From: Minisyncoccota bacterium
GTDB lineage: Bacteria > Patescibacteriota > Minisyncoccia > Phycocordibacterales > CSBR16-119
Assembly (NCBI GenBank): GCA_041389065.1
Contig: JAWKSM010000001.1
Coordinates: 80,320-144,319 of the forward strand
Length of the DNA stretch: 64,000 nucleotides
Direction of reading: 5' to 3'
Shown here: positions 50,464-53,242 of the stretch, piece after piece
Numbering within the stretch: the stretch's first letter is position 1
Layout of the letters: each line of letters opens with the position of its first letter
Translations under genes and position numbers: made by a program
The notes under the pieces: generated by a model
What the model was told of the DNA's origin: nothing
Seen by the model: only the letters and a program-made list of their open reading frames with translations
Databases searched by the model: none

Positions 50464-51163
50464 TTATAAGGAGTTAAACTTATCTTTTTGTAAATCTTCT
50501 AAGGAATTAACAGGTTGCCAATTTTTAAATAAAAAAGCATGTAGTGGAAGTTTGTCTAGATTAGCAAAAAGTGTTTGAGGTAAACCATATTCATCCTTAC
50601 CAGCCAACTCTTTTTTGAAAGAAAAAATTTCCGGTGTTAAAATATGAAATCCATTTGAAAAATAGTCTTCTATTGTACCCGTTTCATTAGAGTGTCTTTC
50701 AAATCCTTCAACTTGTAAATTTTCTTTATCAAACCTAATACCTAAATAATTCCAAGGCATTACTGATTTTGATATACCTATTCCAACCTTCCCGCTTTCA
50801 ATAGCTTTTTGGATTTCTTGCTCATTAAAAAGATCGTCGCAATTGCAGACACAAAATCTTTCTTCATTTTCAATAAGATGTTTTGCTTTTTCTAAAGCTA
50901 TCATTGTACCTCTTCAAATCTTCAGTGCTTTGAATAACATACTCAACCTTTTTGCCATAATGGTTGTCAGTTATATATTCTTCTATTTTAAACCCTAAAT
51001 TATCATTAATGACAAAAATAATTTCTGATATATAACTCAAAAAAGGAGATAGAACATAATCTATAAGTTTTTTGTCTTTAATTGGAACCAACGCCTTGGG
51101 AACATCTTTTGTAAGTGGATATAAACGAGTCCCTTTTCCGGCTGCAAGAATAACTAATTTCAT
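50464..51163 (-). CDS. sugar-1-phosphate nucleotidyltransferase (MurU/GlmU-N-like), interrupted by a frameshift near 50911..50917
   Basis: ORF 50870..51163 gives MKLVILAAGKGTRLYPLT... (NTP-transferase N-terminus); ORF 50464..50904 gives the C-terminal half. Deleting one A restores ...STEDLRGTMIALEKAK...NCDDLF. Confidence 0.65.
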
Positions 51164-51573
51164 AAAGTCTGCAATCTTAAATGACTAATATTTATTATTT
51201 CCTTAGGAAAATCAAATTTTAGCTTTTTTGAAATATATTCAGCTGCAAAAACAGATCTATGTATTCCTCCCGTGCAACCAAAATTTAATTCTATGTTTTC
51301 ATGTCTACTTAAATTCTTTTCAATTAAATATTTATATATAATCTTGTAATTATCTTCTAGAAAATCAATCATGTCAGTTTCTTTTCTAAAAAATTTTTCA
51401 ATTTCGACATCAAGACCTGTAAAATTTTTTAATTCTTCAATTCTTCCAGGGTTTTTTATAAAACGACAATCAAAAATATACTGCAAAGTATCATCTTTTT
51501 CAGGATTGATTTTTATGGGGGTGTATACAAAAGAAAAGCTATTTATTTGAATCATAAGTTTGTTTGGACACAT
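51160..51573 (-). CDS. stand-alone RapZ (YhbJ) C-terminal-domain-like protein
   Basis: FDCRFIKNPGRIEELKNFTGLD...FGCTGGIHRSVFAAEYISKKL matches the RapZ C-terminal half (FDVRFLPNPHW...IGCTGGKHRSV); no P-loop N-domain. Confidence 0.55.
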   Translation of the reverse strand: MCPNKLMIQINSFSFVYTPIKINPEKDDTLQYIFDCRFIKNPGRIEELKNFTGLDVEIEKFFRKETDMIDFLEDNYKIIYKYLIEKNLSRHENIELNFGCTGGIHRSVFAAEYISKKLKFDFPKEIINISHLRLQTL

Positions 51574-53242
51574 TAATAACTTTTTTAATCTCCGGAAAAG
51601 AATAACCCATATTTTCAGTCTTAGAAAAAATATGGAGAAAATTGTTTAATGCAAAAGGAATACTTTTTATGAAATATGTTTTACCTTGTTCTAGGCCACC
51701 AATTCCATAAGATCCTATTGTCTGAATCATACGAACAATCGCAACCAGGTACATATTCCTTAGAAAATGTTCTTTATCAGTAAAATTCTTTTTATTAAAA
51801 AAGTAATTAATTAAAGTTTCAATTAATTCCTCAGAATAATTAACCTGTGATTGAAAAATTAAAGAGACAAAATCGTAATATAAAGGACCCTTACGTGCAT
51901 TCTGAAAATCAATAAGAGAAAGCTTATTATTAAAATCTTCAACAATGATATTCCTTGTTTGAAAGTCTCGATGCATTGAACAGTATTCTTTTTGAGGTAT
52001 TTTATCTATTTCTTGAATTAAAGAATCGATATCTTTTTCAAAAAGTTCATCATTAAAAGATATGTTACTTTTAGTTAGAAATTTTTCTTTAAATCTTTTT
52101 ACATCTCTTAGTATTTCTTCACTATCAAAATTACTAAACGGATAGCATTTTGAATAATCAATTCCAATAGATCCTTTGTCTTGGAAATCAACAAGAAGGT
52201 CGATTACTTGTTTTAAAAGTTTTTCTTTTTGATCTGTGCTTATTTTATTATCTATAACATATGAATATAAATCTTTTTGTCCTTTATACTCTTGTATATA
52301 AAAAGTTTTTTCAGTATTTGAACAAAAAACTATCGGTACATTAATGCCAGATTTTCTTAAATGATGTGATAGTCTGATAAAAGATTCATTTTCAAGTGTG
52401 TCAAAACTCATAGTTGCCAGATAAACTCCATGTTCTGAAATTATTTTAAAATACTCGCGACTTGACCCATGAGGATCAAGTGCTTCTATTTTTAGATTTT
52501 CTGAAGAAAGTATATGTTGATTAAAAAAAGATTTTATATAATTATTTTTGTTACCTAATTCACTTTTTATAAATTCTTTTATCTTATGTTGAATACTAAC
52601 TAAAGATCTTCCAACAACCACAGAAAAAGCTCCTGCGAAAAGTAGTTGATTTGCCTGAGAATAGTTTTCAATTCCACCTTCTGCAATCACAGGGATATTT
52701 AGAGATGATATTTTTTTTACGAGATCAATATGATAACTAAAATTTTTACCTTCTCTTGTCTGAGCTTGAGCAAAAGTTGTTAGCACAAAATCAGCACCTA
52801 AGCTAAAAGCTCTCTTTGCTTCTTCAAGGGTTCCAATATCACAACCAATCAATATATTTTTGTATTTCTTTATTGACTTGATTAAGTTGCCCAAAGTTTC
52901 TTCTGCGTGTAAAAGATTTGAAGCTTCAATAATTATACAATTAACTCCAGCATCTATAATTTTTTTAGCGCTATCAAAATCGGGAGTTACAAAACCAGAC
53001 CCAGGTGATTCTTTGTTGTATATCTTTTCAAGTCCAAGGATAAAAACATGAGGATATTTTTCTTTTACGTACGAAATTATTTCTGAGCCACTTAATCTAA
53101 CAGAAGAAATGCCGGATAAAATAACCCTATCCACTAAATCCTTTAAAATATTCAAATCATGTGGATCTTTATCATTAAAAGGAATTTGGCAGGAAACAGA
53201 AATTTTAGGTAGGTTTTTAAGTTTTATGTCCATGTAAAGCAT
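51539..53242 (-). CDS. fusion of a NanE-like N-acylmannosamine-6-phosphate 2-epimerase TIM barrel (N-terminal) and an APH/choline-kinase-like sugar kinase domain (C-terminal)
   Basis: N-terminal ...NIPVIAEGGIENYSQANQLLFAGAFSVVVGRSL (NanE signature); C-terminal HRDFQTRNIIV...LIDFQNA (Brenner kinase motif) resembling the AmgK/NahK anomeric sugar kinases. Confidence 0.6.
   Translation of the reverse strand: MLYMDIKLKNLPKISVSCQIPFNDKDPHDLNILKDLVDRVILSGISSVRLSGSEIISYVKEKYPHVFILGLEKIYNKESPGSGFVTPDFDSAKKIIDAGVNCIIIEASNLLHAEETLGNLIKSIKKYKNILIGCDIGTLEEAKRAFSLGADFVLTTFAQAQTREGKNFSYHIDLVKKISSLNIPVIAEGGIENYSQANQLLFAGAFSVVVGRSLVSIQHKIKEFIKSELGNKNNYIKSFFNQHILSSENLKIEALDPHGSSREYFKIISEHGVYLATMSFDTLENESFIRLSHHLRKSGINVPIVFCSNTEKTFYIQEYKGQKDLYSYVIDNKISTDQKEKLLKQVIDLLVDFQDKGSIGIDYSKCYPFSNFDSEEILRDVKRFKEKFLTKSNISFNDELFEKDIDSLIQEIDKIPQKEYCSMHRDFQTRNIIVEDFNNKLSLIDFQNARKGPLYYDFVSLIFQSQVNYSEELIETLINYFFNKKNFTDKEHFLRNMYLVAIVRMIQTIGSYGIGGLEQGKTYFIKSIPFALNNFLHIFSKTENMGYSFPEIKKVINVSKQTYDSNK

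Follow-up and report, generated by a model that had tools for sequence, protein, structure and literature searches.

A candidate amino-sugar activation cassette with a NanE-kinase fusion and a separate RapZ C-terminal domain in a Minisyncoccota genome

The three genes and the domains they encode

The window analysed here is a stretch of 64,000 nucleotides (nt) from a Minisyncoccota bacterium (contig JAWKSM010000001.1, positions 80,320 to 144,319), and all coordinates refer to it. Three tightly packed genes occupy positions 53242 to 50464 of its minus strand; they encode a fusion of a NanE-like epimerase to an AmgK-like sugar kinase, a protein that corresponds to RapZ's C-terminal domain (RapZ-C), and a sugar-1-phosphate nucleotidyltransferase (Table 1). 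An earlier reading, made from the sequence alone, had named these four domains, and Pfam places every one of them where it had been claimed, on the minus strand: NanE (PF04131), APH (PF01636), the RapZ C-terminal domain (PF22740) and NTP_transferase (PF00483). Given domain E-values of 1e-16 to 1e-23 and the retention of the cassette in relatives at 43-94% identity, chance can be excluded.

The RapZ-C reading frame begins 17 nt before the kinase gene ends (51539-51555), an overlap kept in four lineages, and the start of the nucleotidyltransferase gene overlaps the RapZ-C stop by 4 nt. RapZ-C is translationally coupled to the kinase. Relatives of the fusion protein begin at a methionine equivalent to position 53233. 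The GC content of the operon, 0.30-0.32, matches that of the surrounding genome.

Table 1. Features of the operon and its immediate surroundings (aa, amino acids; ORF, open reading frame)
Feature	Position	Strand	Basis
NanE-like / AmgK-like kinase fusion gene, 567 aa	53242..51539	-	ORF; Pfam NanE and APH; orthologues P0001-P0004 cover 99%
NanE-family TIM-barrel domain, about aa 12-226	52565..53209	-	PDB phmmer; aligned active-site residues
Codon of predicted catalytic Lys73, NanE domain	53024-53026	-	
AmgK-like APH-fold kinase domain, about aa 245-567	51542..52510	-	Pfam; NCBIfam; PDB profile; AlphaFold2/Foldseek
Kinase Brenner motif HRDFQTRN (HxDxxxxN)	51950-51973	-	
Stand-alone RapZ C-terminal-domain protein, 131 aa	51573/51555..51160	-	PF22740, 82.8 bits
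GCTGGIHRSV motif, anion/sugar-phosphate pocket (E. coli RapZ C247-V256; form Cys-X5-Arg-Ser)	51250..51279	-	translation
Nucleotidyltransferase 5' part, 97-aa ORF, LAAGKGTRL motif	51163..50870	-	PF00483, 61.9 bits
Nucleotidyltransferase 3' part, other frame, 146-aa ORF from 50904	50910..50464	-	TIGR03992 positions 88-214; collinear with intact orthologues
One-base insertion (A on the minus strand) causing a frameshift	50911	-	DNA alignment with L004
tRNA-Lys(UUU) and terminator-like hairpin just upstream of the operon (context only)	53256..53357	-	

The hairpin, at 53277-53256, ends only about 14-23 nt ahead of the operon's start codon, and the best promoter-like site (53418-53390) lies upstream of tRNA-Lys(UUU). 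Transcripts started at the tRNA promoter may read through into the operon.

The N-terminal barrel of the fusion matches PF04131 at residues 42-226 with 66.9 bits (gathering score 27), and its closest solved structures in a phmmer search of the PDB are true NanE enzymes (5zkn, 9e-20; 4utt, 7e-12); the claim of a TIM barrel resembling the epimerase of N-acetylmannosamine 6-phosphate (ManNAc-6-P) is thereby confirmed. The active site of S. aureus NanE comprises Gln11, Arg40, Lys63, Asp124, Glu180 and Arg208, with backbone glycines holding the 6-phosphate (PMC8482478). Five of these six residues have counterparts in the window protein, where Q19, R49, K73, D135 and E188 align with Q11, R40, K63, D124 and E180. 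The five, together with the phosphate-binding glycines G189 and G211, are invariant in all the fusions, in the stand-alone protein P0122 and in the C. perfringens and F. nucleatum enzymes.

The domain thus shares with NanE of sialic-acid catabolism (S. aureus, C. perfringens, F. nucleatum) the TIM barrel, the catalytic Lys/Glu, the Arg-Asp pair, the Gln and the phosphate-binding glycines. It differs in its fusion to an APH kinase, in having neither a ROK-type NanK companion nor a nan operon, and in the motifs of its subfamily, TTFxQAxTR and VG[RK]Ax[TV][DS]P in place of TTLSGYTPY and VGGAITRP. The NanE signatures xPxIGIxK[basic] and VG[SG]AxTR are not matched, the domain having FILGLEKIY and VGRSLVS, and P0122, a close relative, shows the same pocket and motif changes. 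We take it to represent a divergent NanE subfamily in which, as judged from aligned residues, the catalytic machinery is intact and the part of the pocket that surrounds C3/C4 and the N-acyl group has been reshaped.

The kinase portion matches PF01636 at residues 263-481 (59.8 bits; gathering score 23.2), and its top NCBIfam kinase models are two AmgK equivalogs, at 68.8 and 42.4 bits. The magnesium-binding Asp445 lies in LIDFQ, and the IDFQ aspartate is invariant. When a profile of the kinase and its nearest relatives was compared with the PDB, the sole strong match was an uncharacterised APH protein, 3csv (2e-33). The AlphaFold2 model of the kinase (predicted local distance difference test score, pLDDT, 91.8) has the same protein as its top Foldseek match, at a template-modelling (TM) score of 0.76-0.78, ahead of antibiotic kinases. 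NahK was detected neither by sequence in the PDB profile search nor among the top 50 structural matches in Foldseek. The kinase had been likened to both AmgK and NahK; the APH fold, the HxDxxxxN motif and AmgK as the best curated family bear out the first likeness. The analogy with AmgK/MurU for the kinase and nucleotidyltransferase core holds.

The 131-aa protein has PF22740 as its sole Pfam match. Its AlphaFold2 model (pLDDT 89.7; predicted TM score 0.86) matches the E. coli RapZ C-terminal domain (CTD; 5o5s/5o5q) with TM 0.79-0.83 in Foldseek, and it aligns with positions 158-268 of the 278 in the NCBIfam RapZ model, NF003828. It is therefore RapZ's C-terminal domain only, as had been proposed. 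Upstream of it lies the C-terminus of the APH kinase, with no remnant of a P-loop (Walker A/B) N-domain. The possibility that it is a fragment of a frameshifted rapZ was examined and rejected: the ORF is kept at 131-135 aa with its overlap in the four lineages, it has no such remnant, and the RapZ N-domain is absent from all 80 nearest metagenomic relatives of the stand-alone RapZ-C.

When 83 kinase-linked RapZ-C domains are aligned with E. coli RapZ, S166, F167, F181, D182, R184, N188, P189, G200 and H276 (E. coli numbering) and the stretch F245-G-C-T-G-G-x-H-R-S-V255 prove invariant in 83 of 83, and RapZ His190 is Gly in every one. The basic C-terminal tail used for sRNA binding (K270, K281, R282, K283) is absent or unconserved. 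We define this kinase-linked clade by NPG[RK], with Gly at RapZ position 190, and GCTGGxHRSV, in or beside an AmgK-like kinase gene and usually with the nucleotidyltransferase next. The window protein, adjacent to the kinase and carrying NPGR and GCTGGIHRSV, fits it. With RapZ (YhbJ) of E. coli and YvcJ of B. subtilis it has in common the fold of the C-domain (TM about 0.8), the C247-T248-G249-G250-x-H252-R253-S-V pocket and D182; unlike them, it has no P-loop N-domain and no basic tail, and His190 is Gly. Moreover, RapZ has its own gene in the rpoN-ptsN-npr operon, whereas RapZ-C stands here in an operon of enzymes and elsewhere is fused to an APH kinase.

What is known of this pocket comes from RapZ itself. 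Residues H190, T248, G249, H252 and R253, with C247 adjacent, hold sulfate or malonate and the RNA backbone, and form the proposed site for glucosamine 6-phosphate, GlcN6P (PMC5737377, PMC9841335). The isolated E. coli RapZ-CTD binds GlcN6P with a dissociation constant of about 10 nM, in preference to GlcN1P, Glc6P and GlcN (PMC7073468). H190A inactivates RapZ, and so, unexpectedly, does C247S, for which the authors propose a catalytic thiol; they also report that the RapZ-CTD pocket contains density for a "chemically transformed product" of GlcN6P (PMC9841335). The sequence C-T-G-G-x-H-R-S has the Cys-X5-Arg-Ser form that is a thiol-phosphatase signature, a likeness of motif only. Structural kinship between RapZ-C and the Cys-phosphatases was considered and rejected, as OH1, DUSP18 and MKP5 appear in Foldseek only at E>1.

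The database name of the protein offers another function. An identical 131-aa protein (P0006) is deposited at NCBI as [quoted passage not shown], MAG standing for metagenome-assembled genome. A role as an RNase adaptor would accord with the domain shared with RapZ, but we find it scarcely credible, as the protein has neither the N-terminal P-loop domain nor the basic RNA-binding tail, the His190 that is essential in RapZ is an invariant Gly, and the 74.6 bits on NF003828 are far under the equivalog cut-off of 244. GlmY and GlmZ were not found in the window.

The third gene is interrupted. One extra A splits the nucleotidyltransferase gene into its 97-aa and 146-aa ORFs; the minus strand there reads GAAGAGGTAC, and the 94%-identical relative L004 has GAAG-GGTAC, continuing ...EDLKGTMIALEKAK... 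The DNA alignment with L004 shows that the extra A puts ...EDLKGTMIALEKAK... out of frame. In all four relatives the gene is intact, at 232-247 aa. It might be supposed that the operon is decaying in this genome, with a real frameshift and the locus a relic. In favour of decay, the insertion lies outside any homopolymer run and splits the last gene, which the relatives keep whole; on the other side, this is the only lesion, both remaining genes are whole and share 94% identity with an intact relative, errors in MAG consensus sequences do occur, and the GC content is native. On balance we consider decay possible but doubtful.

Distribution of the fusion and of its associated genes

Fusions of NanE to the kinase are rare. 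When 1.84 billion cluster representatives were searched exhaustively with HMMER, only three clusters proved to have both domains, and 5.8 billion proteins contain five clusters at 90% identity, in keeping with the earlier statement that the fusion is not a described arrangement. A word-indexed search of the 5.8 billion proteins returned only four full-length relatives of the fusion, at 94, 86, 52 and 43% identity, and one kinase-RapZ-C fusion without NanE. Since the three HMMER clusters are 40-63% identical to each other, the fusion must be old and maintained, though rare. All four relatives with readable contigs carry the same cassette of fusion, RapZ-C and nucleotidyltransferase. The kinase and nucleotidyltransferase are neighbours here as well as in L001, L003 and L004, and one relative's locus shows synteny with the window (RuvA, Fpg, SpoU, S20).

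The association of the kinase with RapZ-C is far wider. A profile of the kinase, run against one genome per species, found more than 568 relatives, almost all in Bacteroidota, of which the best 80 loci were analysed; the window's own genome and other NanE cassettes are not among the matches listed. Kinase and RapZ-C form one ORF of about 475 aa in 76 of the 80, and the nucleotidyltransferase follows directly 3' on the same strand in 40, with a median gap of 14 nt. Besides it, these 80 Bacteroidota loci have no conserved neighbour, whether phosphatase, transporter, MurQ or AnmK. Altogether, kinase-RapZ-C fusions make up at least 8000 clusters at 90% identity, all with E<1e-30 and mostly from Bacteroidota. 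They share with the window the kinase clade (30-37% identity), the RapZ-C clade (NPG[RK], GCTGGxHRSV) and the downstream nucleotidyltransferase. They differ in being a single polypeptide, in having no NanE and in their MurU-like nucleotidyltransferase, where the window has a separate RapZ-C gene and NanE at the N-terminus of the kinase.

A second scan queried metagenomes with the stand-alone RapZ-C, and its 80 nearest loci bring the total over both scans to 160. Among these 80, the kinase and RapZ-C are fused in 63, split as in the window in nine and part of a triple fusion in one; in the other seven, some of which lie at contig ends, RapZ-C occurs by itself or accompanied by the nucleotidyltransferase. 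The nucleotidyltransferase is adjacent in 54, and NanE in none of the 80. Triple fusions of the form APH-RapZ_C-NTP_transferase are P0077 (751 aa), P0102 (760 aa) and the metagenome locus just counted. The orphan RapZ-C is thus not peculiar to this locus, as the sequence-only reading had held, and represents the split form of a widespread fusion. NanE, in turn, is restricted to cassettes that also have RapZ-C (the cassette relatives) and the cassette-type nucleotidyltransferase subfamily. The core is the kinase plus the nucleotidyltransferase, as in amgK-murU, with RapZ-C a frequent accessory and NanE a rare one.

Some loci depart from this pattern. On metagenome contigs of large genomes, a stand-alone RapZ-C lies with a MurU-like gene only (L096, 4980-6179) or with neither partner nearby (L111, 4992-5381), so that RapZ-C can be encoded apart from the kinase. 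In L006 (ERZ25039549 contig_104349, 5100-6700) the kinase, RapZ-C and nucleotidyltransferase locus is broken into many short ORFs; its neighbours are equally broken, Cys_Met_Meta_PP for example being in three pieces, and the fragmentation looks like that of an error-rich long-read assembly, not of pseudogenes. One relative of the kinase, P0024 (586 aa), carries an N-terminal DNA polymerase A-type 3'-5' exonuclease domain (PF01612, 85.7 bits).

A search of full-text literature returned no paper in which AmgK or MurU occurs together with RapZ, or RapZ-C with APH kinases. Apparently, then, the kinase, RapZ-C and nucleotidyltransferase architecture is very common yet undescribed. Database names for the kinase-RapZ-C fusions, where given, are "phosphotransferase", "RNase adapter RapZ" or "RapZ C-terminal domain-containing protein". 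The label "RNase adapter RapZ" is carried by the fusions P0173, P0193, P0198, P0214, P0239, P0255 and P0273 as well as by P0006. As neither the RapZ N-domain nor His190 nor the RNA-binding tail is present in the labelled proteins, the use of this name for the fusions and for the stand-alone RapZ-C is probably a systematic misannotation.

A candidate route for amino-sugar activation

We propose, with about even confidence, that the locus is an AmgK/MurU-type amino-sugar activation (salvage) module, in which a two-enzyme core is joined by two accessories that act on sugar 6-phosphates. In the AmgK-MurU logic, a hexosamine 1-phosphate of the N-acetylated series (HexNAc-1-P) is made and then converted to a nucleoside diphosphate (NDP) sugar (Gisin 2013, as cited in PMC10941766 and PMC13041923). 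By analogy, the AmgK-like kinase would phosphorylate a free N-acetylhexosamine (HexNAc) at C1, and the nucleotidyltransferase would turn the sugar 1-phosphate into an NDP-sugar. With the AmgK-MurU bypass of Pseudomonas putida and P. aeruginosa, Legionella, Caulobacter and Tannerella forsythia, the cassette shares an APH-fold sugar kinase gene beside a small sugar-1-phosphate nucleotidyltransferase gene; among curated families AmgK scores best for its kinase, and the partners in Bacteroidota are MurU-like. It departs from the bypass in scoring far under the equivalog cut-offs, in its additional NanE and RapZ-C, in a nucleotidyltransferase that is not specifically MurU-like, and in having no HAD-type MupP.

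The NanE-like barrel would interconvert 2-epimeric N-acyl-hexosamine 6-phosphates, that is, ManNAc-6-P and N-acetylglucosamine 6-phosphate (GlcNAc-6-P) or a related pair. This chemistry requires a free, open-chain C1 aldehyde and a 6-phosphate (PMC8482478). Therefore, NanE must precede a kinase acting on C1, and removal of the 6-phosphate must fall between the two fused activities. In Pseudomonas the 6-dephosphorylation step belongs to MupP (PMC5371407), and the only candidate remaining for it in the present operon is RapZ-C, which is predicted to bind the sugar 6-phosphate in its GCTGGxHRSV pocket. It is tempting to propose that RapZ-C strips the 6-phosphate, since it is the last unassigned component of the operon and its known small ligand is an amino-sugar 6-phosphate; this assignment is tentative and, on our estimate, rather unlikely. 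RapZ-C would then take the position of MupP, a HAD-family phosphatase acting on N-acetylmuramic acid 6-phosphate that yields free sugar ahead of AmgK, with an unrelated fold and chemistry.

The full route, which is the one we favour, would thus run from HexNAc-6-P to its epimer (NanE), to HexNAc (RapZ-C), to HexNAc-1-P (kinase) and finally to NDP-HexNAc, keeping the N-acetyl group and needing no phosphomutase. A class A penicillin-binding protein is encoded in the window (23476..26034), which means that the organism makes peptidoglycan and could use activated amino sugars. Flux may run as salvage towards UDP-GlcNAc (UDP, uridine diphosphate), and scavenging of host-derived amino sugars is plausible.

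A different role for RapZ-C is about equally likely as that of phosphatase, and so itself rather doubtful. RapZ-C may instead be a non-catalytic sensor or regulatory subunit, through which an amino-sugar phosphate (GlcN6P, GlcNAc-6-P) or a UDP-sugar tunes the salvage kinase allosterically to the level of de novo precursors, with NanE as an independent 6-phosphate epimerase. Binding of a ligand (GlcN6P) and of RNA are the only activities demonstrated for RapZ-C, the kinase and nucleotidyltransferase core is found without it, and D182, which is required for dimerisation of the RapZ CTD, is invariant, all of which would suit a sensor. A sensor would leave no route from the 6-phosphate product of NanE to the fused C1 kinase, however, and it explains less well why RapZ-C stands between two enzymes in the triple fusions and why its Cys is strictly invariant, C247S being inactive in RapZ. 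Whether as binder of the 6-phosphate or as phosphatase, RapZ-C may be what joins the accessory and core steps. A route through a 1,6-bisphosphate, in which the kinase would act on HexNAc-6-P and RapZ-C would then remove the 6-phosphate, matches the domain order; we rank it low because the core occurs without RapZ-C (L010).

Two further alternatives concern the direction of flux and the position phosphorylated. The cassette might be biosynthetic, running from GlcNAc-6-P through ManNAc-6-P, ManNAc and ManNAc-1-P to NDP-ManNAc, and so provide an activated ManNAc donor without a UDP-GlcNAc 2-epimerase. NanE is reversible (PMC8482478), and a distinct nucleotidyltransferase subfamily, alongside which alone NanE is found, fits a different sugar. 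No glycosyltransferase or other consumer is conserved beside the cassette in relatives, though, and we judge this direction improbable. We know of no nucleotidyltransferase pathway for ManNAc-1-P.

Still less probable, in our view, is that the fused kinase is a 6-kinase, an analogue of NanK with an APH fold, in a catabolic sequence from ManNAc to ManNAc-6-P to GlcNAc-6-P to which the downstream genes would be unrelated. Fused enzymes usually perform consecutive steps, as NanK and NanE do, and APH-fold kinases that yield a sugar 6-phosphate exist, the actinobacterial glucosamine kinase being one. Against this, the nearest families of the kinase are anomeric kinases, and its linkage or fusion to a sugar-1-phosphate nucleotidyltransferase recurs across phyla. 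Animal GNE, a bifunctional UDP-GlcNAc 2-epimerase and ManNAc kinase, likewise unites 2-epimerase and HexNAc kinase in a single polypeptide; its domains are not homologous to those of the cassette, and its kinase is a 6-kinase acting after a nucleotide-sugar epimerase.

Returning to the AmgK/MurU-type module, several findings weigh against it. For the barrel, the best NCBIfam model, the NanE subfamily PRK01130, gives 103.1 bits against a cut-off of 189. Arg208 of the S. aureus enzyme is replaced by S216 (Ser or Asp in relatives) and Tyr149 by A160 (Ala or Ser), and Q159, R163 and R/K212 are new invariant residues in the pocket; judging from these residues, the substrate may be other than ManNAc-6-P. 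For the kinase, the AmgK equivalog cut-offs (NF045759, at least 550; NF045698, at least 500) are not reached; the kinase-RapZ-C fusions of Bacteroidota likewise score only 51-71 bits on these models. The significant Foldseek matches of RapZ-C in the PDB are RapZ entries only. Finally, the Paceibacterota locus L010 consists of the kinase and a cassette-type nucleotidyltransferase only, without RapZ-C, and about half of the nearest kinases stand alone, which would suit a regulatory accessory no less than a catalytic one.

The nucleotidyltransferase raises the same difficulty. On the MurU equivalogs its N-terminal part scores 50.6 bits, short of the cut-offs (NF045761, at least 250; NF045697, at least 370). 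The intact orthologue in L004 scores 54.3 and 43 bits on them, its best family being the archaeal GlmU N-domain at 98 bits, and in the PDB the cassette enzyme matches MurU 4y7t at 35.9 bits, below GalU at 41. By these comparisons it appears to resemble MurU no more than it does GalU or archaeal GlmU-N. The partner in Bacteroidota differs, with 89 bits to the MurU structure 4y7t and 72 bits to the MurU structure 8hhd, and we assign the cassette enzyme to a subfamily distinct from it. Of the earlier description as GlmU-N/MurU-like, the sugar-1-phosphate nucleotidyltransferase family (PF00483) thus stands, and neither a specific likeness to MurU (35.9-54 bits) nor a single ORF does. The extra base itself implies either that the pathway is broken in this genome or that the base is an assembly error.

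If the module is what we propose, it extends AmgK/MurU-type salvage of cell-wall sugars to the Patescibacteria (Candidate Phyla Radiation), to whose lifestyle salvage is central, with two added parts; its form here, in which NanE is fused to the kinase and RapZ-C is split off, is rare and new. More consequential than the fusion is that the RapZ C-domain is embedded among amino-sugar activation enzymes in thousands of genomes, which exposes a large kinase-RapZ-C family, many of whose genome annotations are probably misleading. Its setting beside a sugar kinase, a sugar-nucleotide synthase and a 6-phosphate epimerase names candidate substrates and a candidate reaction for the essential Cys247 and the transformed GlcN6P, and hints that a domain known solely for binding RNA and GlcN6P has a metabolic function. 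The characterised AmgK of T. forsythia, a tool for metabolic labelling of cell walls, is not among the 120 kinase-RapZ-C fusion matches listed; if it carries RapZ-C, the role of the domain could be tested by truncation.

As a more speculative possibility, less probable than either role for RapZ-C considered above, the domain may at its root have been a Cys-X5-Arg, thiol-dependent phosphatase or phosphotransferase of amino-sugar 6-phosphates feeding AmgK-type kinases. The enterobacterial RapZ, an RNA adaptor and GlcN6P sensor, would then be derived, another kinase-like domain having replaced the APH kinase and the pocket having been re-used for the RNA backbone. The Paceibacterota cassette would be a complete mutase-free, acetyl-sparing route from HexNAc-6-P to NDP-HexNAc.

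Other features of the window

Immediately 3' of the operon (49415-50396, minus strand) come two genes, the first for a thioredoxin-like CxxC protein that is secreted (150 aa, CPHC, no Pfam match) and the second for a DsbB-family membrane protein (PF02600, 53.7 bits), which we predict to be a pair for disulfide-bond formation. They are not kept beside the cassette in relatives. Elsewhere in the window, a 204-aa ORF at 57477-58091 (plus strand) matches the cyclodipeptide synthases (PF16715 CDPS, E=3.9e-29, 102 bits) and lies beside tRNA-Arg(GCG) at 58265-58337.

Three islands of high GC content stand out from a background of 0.30-0.37 and may be acquired DNA. The first, at 10001-12000 (0.47), contains a gene for an NYN-domain protein (10803-11726), and the second, at 32001-34000 (0.46), one for an enzyme dependent on pyridoxal phosphate (32784-33875), followed by an ORF without a Pfam match. 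The third, at 40001-42000 (0.52), encodes a 638-aa low-complexity protein rich in Gly, Tyr and Gln (40056-41972), with an internal duplication of about 45 aa and no Pfam match. Two paralogues of 281 and 284 aa, encoded on the minus strand at 56490-57335 and 28089-28943, have no Pfam match and are 28% identical over their full length (E=6e-45); the N-termini of both look like winged-helix DNA-binding domains.

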